Source of the DNA: Moniliella sp. 'wahieum'
Taxonomy: Eukaryota
Assembly (NCBI GenBank): GCA_003971905.1
Contig: RSEE01000132.1
Span: forward strand, 1-64,000
DNA: 64,000 nt
Direction: 5' to 3'
Shown: positions 31,179 through 43,639 of the stretch, in pieces
Layout: the number at the start of each line of letters is the position of its first letter
Numbering within the stretch: the stretch's first letter is position 1
Position numbers and translations under genes: made by a program
The notes under the pieces: model-generated
The model's input: the letters and a program-made list of their open reading frames with translations, nothing else
Told to the model about the DNA's origin: nothing
The model's database searches: none

Positions 31179-31330
31179 AGGGCAGCTGACGTTCCACGCT
31201 TCTCCCTCCCATTGCCCTCTCTCCGTCGTCGACAAAACCAAGCCAACAACCCATCCACCACCCTATCTCGACTTTAACCCAACTCTCGAGCCACGAAAAG
31301 AGGACTTGTGCAAGAAAATATCCTCACCAA

Positions 31331-33269
31331 ATGATCCTTCTCCGTCTACCGTCTTGCATTGTCGTACAGATTCTTTCCAGCCCCCAGCCCCCATGTGGAA
31401 TTGAAAGACCTAACTGCACTAAGCAAAGCCAGCCAAGATCTCCACTGTTTGCTCCGTTCGGAAGACATGTGGATGAGCCAAAGAGGTGTTCCAAAGCCGC
31501 GAAAGATAATCGAATGGCAAAAACAGAACCCTCGTACTCCTATGATTCTCCTCCGTCTGCCTCTTGAGATTGTCGCGCAGATCCTCTCTAGCCCACTTGT
31601 GTCTGTCAAAGATCTAGTAACATTGAGCCAGGCCAGCCAATCTCTCAATCGTTTGCTCGACTCGGACGAGATTTGGAGCACACGCGCACACCAAACTTTC
31701 GTTTCACCCGACACATCGCTGGAGGCGGTTCAAGATGAGGACGAAACGGGAGGTTATATGCATTTTGCGCGCAATTGGAAGGCACTCGTCCAGCTCCATT
31801 ATTTGCAACAATACTATCTTGGTCGCCTACCTCATGGTAAAAAGGGTCGTATTGCTGTGGTACCGGTACAGCGGTTCCAGCACCTCGTCCACGACGTCCA
31901 GCCTAGTAATGCTGACACTAGGATGCGAATTCTCGGTCGCATCGTATTTTGGCGCTTATTTCCAAGGGAAGCAGGGTAACAACACTTAATCTGGATTCGC
32001 TGGATGTGCTGTGGACGCGAAATCTCCAAGTGGGCGAAGATGTTTGTGTTACCTCGCAATACCTCTTCAGTTTTGCTTCGGATGCACCAGGTCAATTGTA
32101 CCGGAGTGGTTCCAAGAAAGGGGTGTACTCTGACCCAGTTCCTTTGCCGCAAGAGATGGCCTGCCTGCATTACACCAAGGCTGAGCTTGGGGAGGACCTG
32201 CTGTTGGTGTCCCCGGAAGCGAGCCAGGAGGTGTTCTGTTACGACTTGAAAAGTGGAAACAGCATCGTGCTTCATCCCCTCTCAACGAAGAGGTATTAGA
32301 AGCGAAGGTGGCCACGTTTACCCATGATGCCGAACGGGTGTACGTGGCAACGGTGAGGAAAACTTTGGAGGCTACTGCATTGTGGGTACTTAACTTAGTT
32401 GAGTACCGGTGCGCGATTCATTGTTTTTCGCGTAACGGAATCTGGCGATGGAAGGTGGAAGTCCCTTTGCTTGGGCGTGATTTCCTACGGAAGAGGTTGA
32501 CCAGCCCCTCCGCCAACAAAGGCTGGAGGTATTTTTTCTTCAACGTCGTACGAGTCACCTGTTACAGCGTCAGGCAATGGCTGGGTTATGGCTAAGTGAC
32601 AGTAGTGACGACAGCAGCACGTTCTGGCAGCCAAGGGTTGTATTGGACGACACCATCCGGGAGGCGAGGAAGCGCCCCCTGGCTTATGTGAGGGAGGCCC
32701 TCAGTCTCTCTTCCCTACCTGAAACACTAGCCCACAATCTGCCTCAATCTGTGAAGTACACGGATCCGCCGGTTAGTATGGGCCTGGATAACAAGTATAG
32801 AGTTTTGGTGATTGCATATGCGGGGGGGCGAATTGTGCTGCTCAATCTGGACGACAGAAGCATGCGCTCGGTGTATGTCCATTGTTTCTTTGACAGGAGA
32901 TCAACTTCTCCTCGTTTATCTGTGAGTGATGGTCGCGCTGTGTTGACCCTTGAAAGTATCTGCATTGCGCTGGATTACTCGTTTGCGGGTGGTGCAAAGC
33001 AGGTACGTGTCTACCCTCTGACGACCAGGCGCTTGAACCTTCGAAGTTCTGTGGTTGAGCAAGGGTACCTCTTCCCCCGTACCGTTGCACACGATCTTAA
33101 CGCGGATGCATTGCCCATCGAGGATGCCGAGTGCACCTCGTCGGCAGTCTATTTGCTACAACGAGAGGGGGACGGCTTCCGGCTCCGAACCTACGACTTG
33201 GTTGCCAGTGCCAACTTACGGCTCAGACCCGACCTCTGGGAGATGTACGTGGAGATGTACGAAGGCTAA
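31331..33269 (+). CDS. F-box protein with two tandem N-terminal F-boxes and a beta-strand-rich C-terminus; frameshifted
   Basis: MILLRLPSCIVVQILSSP..LKDLTALSKASQDLHCLL..EDMW and MILLRLPLEIVAQILSSPLVSVKDLVTLSQASQSLNRLLDSDEIW; continues through ORFs 31949-32299, 32308-32595 and 32577-33269. Confidence 0.72.
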
Positions 33270-33783: not shown

Positions 33784-36700
33784 CTAGGGGACTTGAAACA
33801 TGTGCAGTTTCAAATCCTGAAGCGCCTGTTCGTAGCGGCTTCTCTGCTGGGCCATAGCCTGAACCAGCATCTGTGGGGTAGCAGGATGCGACGTTGGTGG
33901 GCGCACACGTAGGTGCGTACCAGAGGGGCATGCGGTTGGAATGAGGCCATGACCATCAAGGGGTAGGAGCCGAGCAGGTCCTGGGGCCATTTGCGTTCCT
34001 CCGACGGGCCGGACACGGAGCCTGCGTTGGTTTCGCCCATGTGAGTGCGCAGCACGTCCGGATCTGGCAGTAGCATCGCCTCGGCGAGAGCGGTGCTCAT
34101 AAATTGCAGTACCAGATGGTTACGGTCTCTTTCGGCGAGCCGTTGAGATTCAGACAGCGTCGCAAGAGCCGCGGTGAATGCCGTTTCGACTTCGACCCTG
34201 AGTATGCTCTGTTCCGCATAGTTCGCATACGCGTCAGTTTCGCAGCGTTTGCGTGGGGGGTGGGGTGGGGATACGCACAAATTGTTGTATGGCCTTTCCT
34301 CTCCAGTTTGAATTTGGCAAGAAACTACTGGGAGGCGAGCGACCGGCGAGCAAGTCAAGCTTCTTGCTTTGGTCGCGGAGCAAGCTAACCATGGTCATGA
34401 TGGAGTTACAAGTCCTTGGGTGCTGGCTCCATCGCTTGATCACCATGGAGGGTAGAGTCGAGGTGGGCGCGACCTTGGCTGAGACGCCAAGCACATGCGG
34501 TGTATCGAGAAAGACAGACATGAACTGTCTCGTTGGTAAGAAGAGGGCGAAGCGAAGCAGAGGAAACTCCGATGTAAGATGTGTGGGCCAAGAAAAGTCC
34601 GTCTCCGAAAGCGAAAAAGTCCTGCGCACCGCCGCCTTCGCCCGCAGGAGCGGAGGGAGGAGATGGGCATCCACCAACGCCTGACTGACGTACCGGATCA
34701 CTTCGCATCTGACAGCTGAAGGATCCACCTTGGGATGGCCGGTGTTCGTCCCAGGTGCCGCTGCATTTGGCCCAGAGATTCCCTCTTGGAAGGGGGTCAG
34801 TTAATCTTCCAAGAGATTAGGAAAGAGGACGTACAAACAAGCAGCGCACTGGTCCTCCAAAGCAGCCACCTGCTCGGAGGTGTTGCTGTGGCTTGATGCA
34901 TGGAAAGGAGCTGCCTTGCTTTCGGACGATAGGGGCTTCGAACCAGGTTCACATTTAACAGCCGGGTGGTGGGATTCGGGGCGTGAAGCGGGGGCGATGT
35001 GATTTTTTGGGTGGTAAGTGGTGGGCCATCAGAGGAGGGGTCGCAGGGCGGAGCAGGATCAGTGCGGGCCCGTTTGTGTGAGCCTTCCATACTAGGTGAA
35101 GAAGGATCAGAGCGGGGCCGTTTGGTTTTTCTTCCGTGTTCGGTTGGGGGGGGTACGTGTTGGACGCTACGAGGATAGGGGAGCCCTTAGTGATCAGTCG
35201 GAAGATGACCACGTCGAAGCTGAGTATTTCGAGGAACGGGCCAACGCAGCGGTATACACCACGGACCTGCGCTGGCTCCAGGCGATGGGAAGAGTCACTG
35301 TGGAGATAAGCTTGTGCCAGCCAGCCGATGGGACTCAGCGGGTTTGTGTGTAGCAGAGGTAGTACTCGACCAGCTCCTGGGGCCAGCAAGAAGTATCGGC
35401 TCCCGCCTGCGAAAGCGATTGTGGAAGCAGCGTTCCTTTCATCCTCTTGGCAAGGACTCGGCGAAGTTCTACGACATCCTTGTCATAGGACAGCGACAAC
35501 TCCGATAGGGCGTGGTTGAGCGAGACCTGGGTTGGGTTAGAACACAAACATTGATGGTGGAAAGGTGGACGCACAAAATGGGTGTGAACAAGCTTTTTCC
35601 ACAAGACGATGTTTGGCATGTCATGGGAAGCAGGGGGCCAAAGGGGCCCTACCTGCGATGGGGCAAGGCTGGTTATGATTGGATGGATGGCCATGGCCAT
35701 GCGCATAGTGGTGTTGATCGTTTCTGGTGTGATCTGCCAGACATTGAGATACCCCGGTGGCACAGGCTAAATGCAGGAGACGCCCACAAATGGGCGATAA
35801 GGTTACCGGCTTGGTCGAGGAGCACGCTAACACAGCCATCGAAAAGGGACGGAATGTGGCGAGGCTGAGAAGGGGATATGCGTTCACTAACGACGCCGGC
35901 CACTTACGTTGAGGTGGAGCCTTCGGGGAGGCAGCAACACAACCATTGCACTTGCGCACATTAAACGCATCGAGCTCTCTTTCAGTATCTGCACTGGAGG
36001 AAGAAGACCCATTACCACCAACGGAAGCGACGCGCTGCCCCACAAGTAGTACCATAGCATATTGTCCCGAATAATCTGCTTGTCCAGGTCACGCCTTGAG
36101 TCTTGCGCCGACAAAGATCGTTGGGAAAAGATGCCGGATTCGATAATGCCCGCATCGCGCGGAAAAAGAGGCGCCAACGATGTTTGAAGAACACGCGTAT
36201 TCTCCTGATCAGACCGAAACATGTCAGTTCATCCTTACTCCATCCTCATCCGTATCCCAATCAACAGTAGAGGAATACTTACCTCGATAATACCTTCAAT
36301 GCGGGCGAGCGCATCCTTGTAACGCGTACACTCATCATTGCGCGACGGCTGGTTTTTCTCCAGATTAGACGATTGGAAATCATAGTCGGGCGGCGACTGT
36401 GGCTTTGCCTGCTTGGGGCGGTGACGCTCCTCCTCCTTTAGATCCGTGACAGTAGAGGGTTCGTATGACACGAGTCCGCTGGGAAAGGGTCATCAGCTTT
36501 TTTCCTCTGGGAGCGCGTCTCAACGTCTTGCGAGTCGCGATTACTGGACTGAGACTCATCATCCCACGTGCGTTTTCGCCCCTTTGGGGGCTCATGCCAT
36601 TCACGCTGCCCGCCCCTCGCGGCCATCTTGGTACCGTTCAACACGTTCGTATTCGTGGCCCCGTTGTTCCCGTTCAGAACGCTCGCGCTCATTCCGTTTC

Positions 36701-39217
36701 ACCGGAACATGCTCACCATCCGGCCACTCGCTCTCCAGATTTCCCGTGGTGCGGTACTCCTTACCCTGCCCCTCCTGCTTGACAAGGGTGCGGTACTCCT
36801 TGCCCTGCTCCTCCTGCTTGACACGTACAGGGTCCTTCTGCTGCAGCTGCAGCTCCTTGCGGGCGTGCTCTTGATTGGGCTGCTTGCCATTTGTGCGGTG
36901 TGAGTTGGACTTTGGGTCGGAACGGTATGCATCCGGATTCTCCACTCGCCGCGAAAGGGGGGCGGAATTGGAACGGGAAACAGTTTGGCAGCCGGAGTCC
37001 GAGTCGGGATCGGATGAAGAGGATGAGGATGAGGAGATGAGGATGAAGAGGATGAGGAGGATGAGGAGGATGAGGATGAAGGATAGGATGAGGATGAAGA
37101 GGATGAGGATGAGGATGAAGAGATGAGGATGAGGAAGATGAGACGAGGAAGATGAGGACGAGGAAGATGAGACAGGAAGATGAGGAATGAGGAGAAGAAG
37201 AAGATGATGATGATGATGATGACGAGGAGGAGGAGGAGGAGGAGGAGGAAGATGATGATGACGGGGGGGAAGGAGAGTATGCGCGTTCTTGTTTAATGTT
37301 TCGGAGCAATGGAGGGGGAGGGGAGACAATGGGTTCTTGTTGGATCTGGGGTGGGGGCGACATGTGATGAGATCGATGAGGCGAGGGGGGAGGTTCTTGC
37401 TTGATCACAGTTTGGCCTTGACGCGATGGGCACAGTGGGGAAGGTGGGCCAGGCTCTTGCTTGATGAAGCGGGGATGCGATGAGTGGGGAGGGGACAGGG
37501 AAGCGGTGATCGTCGGCGAGTGGGAAGGGGCGAAAGGGTGGGGAGATGTAGCGCGGATCGGGTCGCGAGTGACACTGGATGCGGGAACGGTAGCGGTAGC
37601 GGCGCAATAGGGCAGGGGGGCGGGGGATGGCTGGGATGGGGTTTGATTGGTAGAATCGGGGTGAGTAGAGAGGAGGAGGGCGGGTGCGAGCGTGGTAGTC
37701 GGCACAGACATAGACACGGGCCGGGACATAGGCGTGGCAGTAGATACGGCCGGAGTCACGCGAGAGAGTGGAGTAGTACGCGAGAGCGGAGTAGTACGAG
37801 AGAGTGGGAGGGAGCTGGAAACGACGGGTTCAGAGGGAGCGCTGGCAACGGAAGCGGGCTGACTTTGGGAGGTGGAGGCGACGCGAGAGGGGTGGGACTC
37901 TGTGTGGGAGGGGGAGGCACTGGCCCAAAGGGTAGACCGCTAGTAGCAGTCGGATCTCCCGCACCGCCGCCTGGGCAACCATGCTAGTAGAAGGGTGTGC
38001 GCTCCAGGAGGCCAGAACAGCGGGGTGGAGGCCCTCTTCGCTTTGCGCAGCCAGTCTGCGCCGGAGAAGAGGCGGACTGAACTTGGGCAACCGGAGGAGC
38101 GGGTAGCGTTCTTGCATCCCCCTTGGCCAGTGGTCCCCGATGTCGAGGGGAGGGGGAGGAAGGAATCCTTCGCTGACGAGGTGAAGGAGAATCTTGTGCA
38201 TTGCTACCGCCGCTACCGCCTCAACGCGGAGTGTTGGTACCCACTGCCAGCAACTCATTCGCCAACATCTTGCCCAGGGATAGAGCGGCGAACACCAAGC
38301 CTTCGTCCACCAGGCGATCCAGCTTCAGCTCGTTGTCGGCTGAAGGCTGAGCCGAAGGGGTGACGCGGGAGTACGATGCACACCGAGAATTTGTGTCGAC
38401 GCTTCCGATGTGTCCCCCACGTTGGCGCACATCGCCGCACGCATAGGGGGAAGGTTGGGTTCAACATCGAGAGAGACGCGAGCTCCAACTCGTCCTCCAC
38501 CCCCCCGGGGGGGAATTAGGAGGGGAAGTCAAGGCAGAATAGGTAGAGCCGACCTCCAACGCATCTTCCTCTTGGTTCATCCGCGGAGCGTGCACACGAT
38601 CGTGCTCCAAGGCTGACCGCACGGCCTCCACGTGTCGGTTAAGTGTCGGCTGGAGGTAGGAAGATAGGTGATGTGTGGGTAGAGGAAGGCGGCGCGGACA
38701 AAAGAGTGGTGGGGAGACAAGAAGCGCAATAAGGAGTAGCGGTCCAGAATAGGAGTGTTCCAGGGTGAAGCGAGGGTGGCAAGAGGAGGTACGAGGCCAG
38801 CGCGGTTAAGGGCGGCCATAGCGTGAGCCGCTGCCTCGTCTTCAGAGGTGTCACTCCGGGTCCGGAGGGCGGCTTCGATGGCGAGCCGCATGACCTGGAG
38901 CGCATCCGCCACACCAGATGCGGGCATTGCGCCGTCGTCAGCTGTGCGCTGCCAATTTCCAACGGAAGCTGGTGGTGATGGCGATGGTGGCAAGGCTGCC
39001 TATGGCCTTCAGCGCGGTGAACGCCTGTTGTACCCGCACACGCGACAAAAAAACTTCGGGCATGCTTCGTGGGCTTCAAAGTGAAACTTGGATCTTCCAC
39101 AGCGGCTTGGATGAGACGGTTTAACGATTTCGGGTTACCGGCGGCAACTGACAAAAACGACCATTTGCACACATGTACTGTTGTCCAGGACAGCTCCAAA
39201 GCTCTGTCCTGCGTCAC
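33784..39217 (-). CDS. Large orphan protein (possibly two genes) with six divergent repeats and a central low-complexity linker; 5' end uncertain
   Basis: Chain of overlapping minus-strand ORFs; in-frame intron 36205-36282 (GTAAGT..CTGAC..CAG); recurrent WPxxLxxxYPLL motif. Confidence 0.55.
37013..37262. repeat. (GAT/GAG/GAA)n trinucleotide low-complexity tract, probably poly-Ser on the minus strand
   Basis: gaggatgaggatgaagaggatgag...gatgatgatgacgaggaggaggag. Confidence 0.9.
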
Positions 39218-39367: not shown

Positions 39368-40344
39368 CTAGTCCTTGGGCTGCAAGTCAAACAGGACAAA
39401 TTCCACGTTTTCCTTGCCAACCGAGGCCAATTCGATCCGCTCGCCCACTCGGGCGCCGGCGATGTATGCGCCATCACCCTCTGCGAGGGTGGTTGTGCCC
39501 TTGGCTGTGGTCACCGACAAGATGCCCGGAGTGGAGGGAGTAGCATCTGCACTTCCCGCAGAGTCCGGCTTGCTGTACCCACTGCTCATGGCTACGTGGA
39601 GGTAAAGCCAGCGCTCGGAGCCCGTGCGGCAGCCACGTCAGTATCGGTGCCAATGACATGGGAAACGTTGTGGCCCGGCTCGAGCACCGAGACACGGGTG
39701 ACGAGGAGTTGTGTGCTGGGATGGCGCGACCCGGGGGCAAGAGCCCGTGGCAGCCTGTTCTTCTGGTGTGAAGGTCGACCAAGGCTTGATGAGGGTCTGG
39801 AGTTTGTTGCGCTTATCGTTTTCAGTGCTGTTGTAGGTATAGCGCGGCGGCAGCCGCGTTCGTCGGGAATGTACCAGATCTGCAAAAAGTGGCACTCGGT
39901 TTCGGGTATTGTGTTGTACTCGCTGTGCACGATGCCGGTGCCTGCCGAGGTGAACTGCACTTGGCCCCGTCGCAGCGTCTCGACATTTCCCATCGAGTCA
40001 CGGTGGGTCAACTCGCCCCCGACAACATAGGAGAACTGGAGCAAGGTGTAGGTCAGGAAAAGAGCTGCAGACGAGGGAAAGGGCTGAGGCCATACAATCT
40101 CAAAGTTCTTGTGGGGGTGCGGGGGGAAGCCCTGGGTGGGGGCGACCCTATCTTCGTTGATGACGCGCAAGTCGGAGAAGCCTGGGAAACGGTGATCCCA
40201 ATAGGAGGCGAAAGAAAAGGTGTGGTAGGACTTGAGCCAGCCAAGGTCCGCGTGGCCACGCTCGCTGGACCGGGCGGGAGGACAGTGGTGAGCTTGGCGA
40301 GCTCGGCGGGGGGGCGGCGGAGAGGGCGCGGCGGACGAAGACAT
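39368..40344 (-). CDS. Pirin-like cupin (YhhW/quercetinase type), copy 1; intron ~40037-40094
   Basis: [22 protein letters not shown]...[62 protein letters not shown]. Confidence 0.9.
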
Positions 40345-40770
40345 GGCGCGCAGGGGCAGGACGGGCGGGGAGGTTGGTGGGGCCCGCAGGCAGCGGATGG
40401 CGGAGGAGCGTGCGGGGCGCAGCGGGGAGGAGGCGGAGCATGGGAGGCGATGGAGGGGGGGAAGAGGCCGGACGCGCCGGGCTGTCTATCTATTTTCGCG
40501 TAGCAGCTAAACGGGCGCCAATTAGCCAACCTGCGTCCGTCGGCGACTACCCATCACTTGCAATTCAGCTGCGGCCCCGCACCCCACACTGCCCGTCTGC
40601 CTCCCCCGCGACGATGGCCCGTGTTTGACCTGTCTGAGCTGTGCGGGGCCGCAGCAGACCGGAGAGGACTGGGAGGAATGGTAATCGACTAGCAATACAA
40701 TACACCTTGAAGCCCGACCGCCCTTCCTCCGTCCCCACCGCCACCACCAACCGCCCCGGCTCCCACGCAC

Positions 40771-41740
40771 ATGTCGCTCCCTCTGGCTGCCAACGCCAAC
40801 GTCGTCAAGCGCCGCTGGTGTGACCGCGGCCACGCCGACCACGACTGGCTCCGCTCCTTCCACACTTTCAGCTTTGCCGACTACTATGACCCCCGCTTCA
40901 TGGGCTACAGCAACCTGCGCGTCATCAACGAAGACCGTGTTGCACCCGGTACCGGTTCCCTCCCCATCCACACGCTGGCGCGGAGATTGTAAGCGAACCC
41001 CTTCCCTCCTGTTCCCTTTTCTTATTTTTTTTCCCTGACGGAGCCAAAGACTGACTTTGTCAAACTTGTTCCCCACTCAACAGTTCTCCATTGTGCTTGC
41101 AGGCGAGCTGACGCACAAAGACAATATGGGCAACGTCGAAGTCCTCAGCCCAGGGGAGGTGCAATTCACCAGCGCGGGCAAGCCGCCCGGGATCAAGCAT
41201 AGCGAATACAATGCCAACAAACACGACGAATGCCACTTCCTCCAGATTTGGTACACCCCCGATGACCGCAACCTGCCTGCACGTTACTATACTGCCCCCA
41301 AGTCCGACTGGACCGACGAGAGTGACCTCATCAAGCCCTGGTCTACCCTCACCCCGAGGAGCAGGCCCGCACCGGCCTTCTCCGCCCGGCGAAGCCATCC
41401 CGGCCCACTCCTCCTTGGTCACCCGCGCCTGCACCCTCAACCCGGAAGAGAGTGTGAGTCACGTCGTTGGTATAGACACGGATGTCGCTGCGCAAACAGG
41501 AACCGAGCGGTGGCTGTATGTCCACGTGGCACAAGTGTCGGGGTACAAAGACCCAGAGCTTGCGACGTTAAGCTCAAGAAGGAGGGGCACCTTGTCATTC
41601 GCACGGCTACTACTACCTCGAGCTTGAGGAGGCGACGGTGCGTTTATCAAGAATGTCCGGGTTGGGGAAGCAGGTGGAGTTTGAGTCCAAAGGGCCCAAC
41701 GCGGCCACCTTTGTCCTATTTGACCTTGGCCAAGGAGTAA
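40771..41740 (+). CDS. Pirin-like cupin (YhhW/quercetinase type), copy 2; intron ~40989-41083
   Basis: [78 protein letters not shown]. Confidence 0.9.
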
Positions 41741-42211
41741 GTCTGCTCTGCCAGCATTTTGATCCAGGGTGTGTTCATGTCTCTCTAATGCTGTTAACGG
41801 CGACAATCAGGGCGATGCAAAAGAGTCGAATGTACATAGCTAATCGAAAACGCTGGTAACAAGGTTCCGGATAGATATGTGAGGACTACGTACAAAATTC
41901 AAGGTGAGCAAGGCCCACAAGATTGTGCACAAGAAATTTCGATTAGCCATGTAAGAAGTAGAACGAGTGGTACGTGGCACCTCAATAAAAAACCCGCTGT
42001 ACTCGTGCTCATTGCGATGTGCCCCGCAGTCATCATCTTGGCGGCCGAACAAATGAATAACTGAAAGTAGAGCGATAGGGTTATACGCGTTCTTCGTGTG
42101 CCGTTCGTTGTTCGCGTCTCGTGCCAACGACCCGACGCGAGGTGGGGGTTGGGTCGACGTATTGTCCCTTCTCGCCATCGTTAAGAGCTCAGCGGATCAA
42201 CAGCTGCACAG

Positions 42212-43246: not shown

Positions 43247-43639
43247 TCAGTGTGTCCGCTCCACCGACCCGCCAAGGGCGCCGACAAAGTTAGCGGAACG
43301 CACCGTTTGCTGCGCTGCACCGCCCATGGCCTGCATTTTTTCCCCGACTTTTTGGTTGACGACAAAAAATTTGGCCACGCAACGGTCAATGCAGTTGCTC
43401 TCGCCAGTGGTCAACTCGCCCTCAGTGTACCGTGGTGAAATGCACTTGGCATGGCAAGAAGAGACGAGCTTGTTGAACGTATCGGTGATCATGTCGAGCT
43501 AGAGAGGCAGGGCAGGGAGGCAGAACCCAATTAGTCCAGGTCCTGGCAGCGGAGTCAACAAACGACGTACCTCGGCCGTGGCCATCTCGAGATGCGGGTT
43601 GGGAGCGGCAGCTCCGCTGCTTCCGCCAAGGCCAAACAT
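43247..43639 (-). CDS. TIM10: Mitochondrial intermembrane chaperone Tim10; intron ~43499-43571
   Basis: [51 protein letters not shown] (twin CX3C). Confidence 0.92.

Follow-up and report, generated by a model that had tools for sequence, protein, structure and literature searches.

The window analysed here, a stretch of 64,000 nucleotides (bases 1-64000 of contig C132), carries on its minus strand, between positions 33784 and 38927, a gene encoding six diverged tandem copies of a helical domain, and these copies are homologous in sequence to the N-terminal domain of Bud22 as it occurs in the same fungal lineage. The gene belongs to a family within this genome, and its units are under purifying selection. 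A domain of a known protein, one that Pfam misses, is reused in a tandem architecture, and the product is related to Bud22 without being a Bud22. Taken as a whole, the explanation that we favour, at somewhat better than even confidence, is that of one spliced gene whose six Bud22-derived domains would form a nuclear, multivalent scaffold.

Six units in one gene and their family

The initial annotation placed six segments on the minus strand with tryptophan codons at 38762, 38129, 35902, 35385, 34590 and 33989, and all six lie there. They correspond, in the same order, to unit 1 (38600..38927), which is the weakest copy and pairs best with unit 1 of a paralogue described below; unit 2 (37941..38330), which was used for structural modelling; unit 3 (35690..36126), whose frame is open in the allele; unit 4 (35267..35526), whose YYPLL is in frame in the allele; unit 5 (34366..34734); and unit 6 (33810..34202), which lies near the stop codon and is 51% identical to unit 6 of the paralogue. 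The indels reported at units 3 and 4 are absent from the second haplotype of the window (contig C122), which reads through both units, and the arrangement of two units, a linker and four units is reproduced by the five-exon gene model. Against a background of 1,329 open reading frames (ORFs), leave-one-out profiles recovered five of the six units, with E values of 2.4e-4, 1.9e-7, 1.2e-5, 2.7e-5 and 2.6e-9 for units 2 to 6, respectively, and 0.14 for the best background ORF. Unit 1 failed this six-unit comparison (E 1.5), but a profile built from 22 other units of the family did recover it, at E 9.4e-4 and ahead of all 1,329 background ORFs. When the 15 unit pairs were compared with 300 shuffles, seven beat every shuffle and 12 were reached by no more than 8 of the 300, while three pairs that include unit 1 stood at chance level.

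Each unit opens with one or two helices, followed by LLP and a variable loop; W-P-x-x-L-x-x-x-YPLL and F/L-x-P come next, and one or two further helices close the unit. The LLP...WPxxLxxxYPLL motif is thus present as first quoted, within a real unit that is longer, at about 110-150 amino acids. A strict form of the motif matched four times in the six frames of the window, always within this gene (mean 0.02 and maximum 1 in 200 shuffles), and in five of the six units of the C122 allele, although this test is partly circular, the motif having been derived from the earlier observation itself. The units are only 21-27% identical to unit 2, and their net charges range from -3 to +10, with four at +2 or below. 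The invariant positions are P, W and L, and no conserved catalytic-looking residues were seen; the conserved Pro, Trp, Leu and Tyr/Phe would suit a folding core rather than an active site.

Between haplotypes, the 776 unit codons differ by 30 silent and 31 amino-acid-changing substitutions over 584 and 1,744 sites, respectively, giving a silent rate (dS) of 0.053, an amino-acid-changing rate (dN) of 0.018 and a dN/dS of about 0.34. All six units taken together are under purifying selection, and the proposal that one large protein holds an old helical repeat, evident at the protein level, is borne out. Unit 6, with 2 silent and 10 amino-acid-changing differences, is unlike the other five, although these counts are small, and an in-frame stretch of the linker has 3 silent and 14 amino-acid-changing differences.

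The description of the protein as an orphan does not hold, as four more family loci occur in the genome and five similar unnamed proteins occur elsewhere. The four loci are another gene with six units, two genes that have two to three units each and one locus where a unit is fused to a retrotransposon Gag; the genome searches scored the top candidates, so that the family comprises at least five loci, with about 20 units per haplotype. In the second six-unit gene (C138/C130; L010, L011), the same-numbered unit is the best match of each window unit in six of six cases, and the tree pairs them with support of 87-100. Donor sites stand at matching residues in the two genes before units 3 and 5 and, by eye, also before units 4 and 6. 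Because silent sites between the two genes are saturated or nearly so, the six-unit layout is old. The paralogue, enlarged by numerous homopeptide and dipeptide runs, is situated at the end of a contig, in surroundings with few genes.

On C4, two genes, one with three units and the other with two or more, face each other at 294.7-296.6k (+) and 303.5-305.4k (-), with alleles on C16; their first units are near-identical, their last units are 47% identical, and the gene between them looks, by eye, like a LIM-RhoGAP. The remaining locus (C75:338.5-342.4k and C35:619.4-623.2k; L057:3056-7000 and L058:2669-7152) holds two single units, 96-98% identical and 3.4 kb apart, the first of which is in frame with Retrotrans_gag, behind which come two zinc knuckles (Pfam E 2.9e-6 and 5.7e-10) and then an integrase-like remnant. 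This Gag-unit block occurs once per haplotype. A weak match on C38 (E 0.007) was not confirmed by three profiles, and candidate loci on C27, C8 and C35:467-475k were likewise unconfirmed as family members.

Outside this genome, a 10-unit profile that included no Bud22 retrieved eight proteins among 1.84 billion sequences: five unnamed single-unit proteins, one Bud22 (P0008) and two apparent false matches, namely a Frizzled-domain repeat protein (P0002) and a protein with a short internal repeat (P0007), both of which were excluded from later alignments. Two outside unit-bearing proteins, P0001 and P0010, group in the tree with different C4-type units, and a relative of this fungus may carry a multi-unit locus. 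A word-based search with units 3-4 for longer homologous proteins gave none among 4,804 candidates, and a search of the ESM Atlas gave no usable match. The W-x7-YP-x-L pattern resembles the hAT transposase dimerisation domain; this candidate was rejected, the family being absent from the Pfam matches at E up to 10 (units) or 1.

Homology to the N-terminal domain of Bud22

Bud22 (PF09073) is a fungal factor of the 90S pre-ribosome that dimerises with Efg1, enters a trimer with Dbp4 and contacts the U14 small nucleolar RNA and the 5' domain of 18S ribosomal RNA (rRNA), according to the available sections of PMC10783500, in which no Bud22 fragments or partner-binding parts are mapped. The connection of the units to this protein came from the 10-unit profile, which found P0008 at E 3.5e-4; Pfam assigns P0008 to BUD22 at E 3.8e-20, and its N-terminal domain holds the whole motif (L.P...WP.ELV.AYPLL). 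In the reverse direction, a search of the genome with P0008 found family units (C75, E 0.0012; unit 4, E 0.012), and the C75 unit is identical to P0008 at 22 of 66 positions (E 2e-7). Three further Bud22 proteins of the lineage were found starting from Bud22, independently of the unit profile, and P0013, P0014 and the genome's own Bud22 match Pfam BUD22. A 22-unit profile without Bud22 placed four of four lineage Bud22 proteins at E 2.6e-14, 3.2e-10, 2e-4 and 0.0039, compared with 0.77 for the best of the 1,329 background ORFs. Profile-profile comparison of the six units with the four Bud22 N-terminal domains gave 74.8% (E 2.6e-5, score 36; 15 or less in 100 column shuffles), and with 17 units it gave 93.3% (E 2.8e-7), or 67.8% (E 4.9e-5) when P0008 was left out. 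The first units of C75 and C4 form the bridge between the units and Bud22. In the tree, the four Bud22 rows stand together (95/93).

It is very probable, on these sequence comparisons, that the unit descends from the N-terminal domain of Bud22. The initial annotation left the domain unrecognised, and the units indeed have no Pfam match; its reading of a novel domain is not supported, as the unit shows detectable homology to this lineage's Bud22, across the second half of the N-terminal helical domain and with the LLP...YPLL segment included. The W...YPLL motif looks like a lineage-specific segment of that domain, with the flanking helices presumably coming from the general domain. Two related Bud22 proteins read LLP...QYPLL and LLP...EFPLL. 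The ordinary Bud22 gene of this genome (C65/C17; L055:1856-2250 on C65) has a shortened motif without Trp (RLLP...DYPL), and the distant P0008 keeps the whole motif; the repeats may preserve an older state of it than the genome's own Bud22.

The units retain the later helices of the Bud22 N-terminal domain, as found in this lineage, and lack other parts of the protein. A profile of the C-terminal region (LPSL..G, NR.GQRAR..W.KK[YF]G, HPSW) run over 4,109 ORFs of 12 loci matched only the two Bud22 alleles and nothing inside the family genes. A profile of the basic first helix, which has a net charge of +7 to +9 in Bud22, gave the Bud22 alleles at E ~1e-18 and the best family locus at E 0.63, with no match in the window gene. 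Like Bud22, the repeat protein has long low-complexity stretches and basic patches. In contrast to Bud22, which carries its domain once together with the basic first helix and the C-terminal motifs, it has six diverged copies without either, reaches roughly 3.5 times the length and occurs alongside an ordinary BUD22.

Bud22 and SRFBP1 have been little studied, and the natural tandem copies mark out the N-terminal module as independently folding. The roughly 20 diverged units per haplotype were enough for a confident structural model where Bud22 alone gave a poor one, and the locus offers a case of a new multi-domain gene family arising from a piece of a single-copy housekeeping gene. Among the literature matches listed, in which subscription journals are largely uncovered, there was no description of repeats or families of paralogues derived from Bud22. 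When metagenomes were scanned with the Bud22 alignment, none of 220 stretches could be confirmed.

Predicted role and competing explanations

In the favoured history, a partial BUD22 duplicate would have lost the basic first helix and the C-terminal motifs but retained the later helices together with the LLP...W...YPLL segment of the lineage. This duplicate would then have been amplified in tandem, units 3-6 each beginning just after an intron, and the six-unit gene would subsequently have been duplicated whole. The product may resemble beads on a string, nuclear and multivalent, with each diverged unit offering a surface for a partner and the linker carrying predicted import and SUMO-type signals. 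Its nuclear location, partner binding and expression are all predicted. That it is a scaffold acting away from ribosome assembly has, in our estimate, a little less than an even chance; its work would most likely lie outside normal 18S rRNA folding, which would still be covered by the ordinary Bud22 gene. A plain replacement of Bud22 is unlikely, because the protein lacks the basic, most conserved parts of Bud22 and the genome retains an ordinary Bud22.

A nuclear scaffold with six diverged binding surfaces is suggested by a basic patch kept in the paralogue together with five SUMO-type motifs in the linker. The Ser/Pro-rich, low-complexity linker (36290..37940, minus strand, about 520-550 amino acids) contains five hydrophobic-K-x-E motifs at 37465, 37405, 37297, 36822 and 36783 on the minus strand, which we take to be the SUMO-site consensus; 5,000 shuffles gave a mean of 0.13 and a maximum of 3. 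The basic patch KRPRSD...KRART (35060..35130, minus strand), located between units 4 and 5, is presumably like a nuclear localisation signal, and both haplotypes of the six-unit paralogue have KRPRS in the corresponding position. An acidic DSDS..CQ(T/I)(V/I) patch, which resembles a SUMO-interacting motif, is common to both six-unit genes (window ~37020-36985 (-); L010 ~1900-1940), the rest of the linkers being unalignable.

For unit 2 of the allele, AlphaFold with a 17-row alignment gave an all-helical model of seven helices with a mean predicted local distance difference test (pLDDT) of 82.3 and a predicted template modelling score (pTM) of 0.74. Searches of the PDB by sequence returned nothing under E 0.8 for the unit and no solved Bud22 structure, and Foldseek on the PDB with the unit model reached E 2.2 at best. 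A wide structural search of 48,161 chains gave no Z of 8 or more, a result that does not establish a new fold. The top fold rows, a potassium-channel pore (Z 6.8, root-mean-square deviation 2.9, 83 aligned residues, 7% identity), were rejected as within the noise for helical models; the maximum 19-residue hydropathy of 1.0-1.6 does not clearly indicate membrane helices, and no GYG-type motif is visible in the alignments.

The animal counterpart of Bud22, SRFBP1 (p49/STRAP), binds SRF through a conserved N-terminal region and has only about 29 C-terminal residues in common with yeast Bud22, according to the available part of PMC4160719. The SRF binding described there is the only functional label found for the N-terminal end of the family. 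Unlike the window protein, SRFBP1 has a single, unrepeated domain. Among helical solenoid repeats, HEAT, ARM and TPR are all-helical and protein-binding. The window protein is predicted to share these features, being all-helical, repeated and probably protein-binding, but its units are 110-150 amino acids long, fold alone in the model and are separated by linkers, in contrast to the short contiguous repeats of 34-47 amino acids in HEAT, ARM and TPR, and the Pfam models of those families gave no match in the units.

Although the scaffold reading places the protein outside ribosome assembly, the Bud22-derived units could still act there, with the protein binding several Efg1, Dbp4 or pre-90S components and tuning or storing precursors in some life stage. 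This is unlikely. The homology of the units to Bud22, the Efg1 dimer and Dbp4 trimer described in the available sections of PMC10783500, the presence of Efg1 in the genome and the nuclear-type signals of the repeat protein are all consistent with it, but the protein has neither the basic first helix nor the conserved C-terminal motifs, and the low net charge of four of the six units also argues against it. In addition, one Efg1 pair was found versus about 20 units per haplotype, and identities as low as those to unit 2 would not be expected of copies constrained by a single partner. Efg1 and the Bud22 N-terminal domain of this genome, when co-folded without alignments, scored 0.01, which speaks neither for nor against the reading.

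It is more doubtful that the units serve in genetic conflict, where the Bud22 N-terminal domain would be a mobile, repeatable module and the fast-diverging family of six-unit, two- to three-unit and Gag-fused members would provide decoys or baits, with fast turnover, against retrotransposons or a meiotic driver. The C75/C35 unit in frame with Gag and zinc knuckles points in this direction, as does the excess of amino-acid-changing differences in unit 6; the Gag fusion is, on the other hand, confined to a single locus and could have arisen by simple insertion into a tandem duplicate, the unit 6 counts are small, and the six units are under purifying selection in an old layout. Deletion of bud22 in yeast lowers Ty1 Gag and Gag processing, an effect that the available part of PMC4673737 puts down to a shortage of 40S subunits, not to direct binding. 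Duplicated nuclear-transport genes tied to drive in Drosophila provide a precedent, as far as the available part of PMC8645118 describes them. If true, this reading would mean that the domain of a ribosome-assembly factor was turned into a mobile, repeatable module in this fungal lineage.

Several observations weigh against descent from Bud22 or against the scaffold built on it. Profile-profile comparison of the six window units alone gives 36.5% when P0008 is omitted, and a three-sequence Bud22 profile ranks no window unit above background. The significant Bud22 alignment spans only 48-66 columns. Pfam BUD22 (PF09073) does not match the units (10 of 10 units without a match at E up to 10, and exon-sized ORFs likewise), and 19 N-domain segments from the Bud22 of other fungi gave 0.2-0.4% against the units, in a blunt comparison where the lineage's own Bud22 gave only 2.1%. 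The tree leaves the order of events unsettled, the Bud22 model has a pLDDT under 50 at residues 93-129, the shared segment, and is too poor for fold comparison, and no SUMO-type motifs were seen in those linker ORFs of the paralogue that were checked. It is conceivable, if improbable, that the units are an independent lineage-specific domain whose resemblance to Bud22 arose by chance, in a short amphipathic helix together with YPLL, or reflects a piece of the domain inserted into the lineage's Bud22. The short alignment, the missing PF09073 match and the absence of W...YPLL from all 50 Bud22 reading frames of other fungi (some partial) would fit such an origin. Against it, all four Bud22 proteins score above background, including the three found independently of the unit profile, and, judged by eye, the likeness begins at the L-x-E-L-D helix that precedes the motif and continues to the last helix behind it, both parts of the general Bud22 N-terminal domain.

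Gene model, assembly and neighbouring loci

The best model is one predicted gene of five exons on the minus strand (38927-36283, 36204-35575, 35526-34835, 34784-34279 and 34208-33784), running from the ATG at 38927, the simplest choice of start, to the TAG at 33786-33784 and encoding about 1,630-1,640 amino acids. A single large protein had been anticipated correctly and its size of roughly 1,700 amino acids is revised to this length; the span first given for the repeat extended to 39217, which is a GTG. An upstream ATG at 39174 was rejected, as its frame in the window meets a stop near 38943 and shows no match to the first helix. The window DNA is eukaryotic with short GT..AG introns, and the introns of the model have GT..AG ends and branch sites. 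On the minus strand, intron 1 (36205..36282, 78 nt) lies ahead of unit 3, with a donor that follows R-x-E-x-I-I-E residues as in the paralogue, and introns 2 (35527..35574, 48 nt), 3 (34785..34834, 50 nt) and 4 (34209..34278, 70 nt) lie ahead of units 4, 5 and 6, respectively.

The frame is interrupted by single-base indels in this assembly (69.5 Mb, 223 contigs). The C122 haplotype aligns with 5,645 matches and 216 mismatches (96% identity at aligned bases) and many one-base indels. Frame-changing indels that differ between the haplotypes number 25, most of them in base runs, and they look like assembly errors; adjoining housekeeping genes have broken frames too. After removal of introns, a stop-free path requires at least 13 frame changes in the window and 4 in the allele, compared with about 31 in shuffled DNA, and when either haplotype is chosen at each difference a single shared stop is left at 38461. 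These frame changes and the shared stop would suit a decaying pseudogene, or two genes of two and four units, but such readings are very improbable given that the indels and broken neighbours point to the assembly, that the stop is found between the first two units, adjacent to a C/G run, and not in the long linker, that a 721-amino-acid frame of the allele begins before unit 2 and spans the linker, and that the dN/dS ratio is low and the paralogue agrees in layout and intron sites.

Genes are present as allelic pairs in the assembly, with two copies each of tRNA methyltransferase, Bud22 and Efg1. A mixture of two species is unlikely, given these paired copies, and the neighbourhood of the six-unit paralogue shares no other gene with the window. 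By Pfam, the repeat gene has two pirin genes and a gene for an RNase H2 subunit upstream of it and an F-box gene downstream. The pirin genes stand head to head just upstream (39368-40353 (-) and 40711-41760 (+)). In the F-box gene (31190-31980 (+)), the F-box start (MILLRLP...QILSSP) occurs twice, about 170 bases apart. A small gene at 43247-43620 (-), presumably of the Tim family, has, besides its allele, a third copy that is 94% identical at C32:595.6k.

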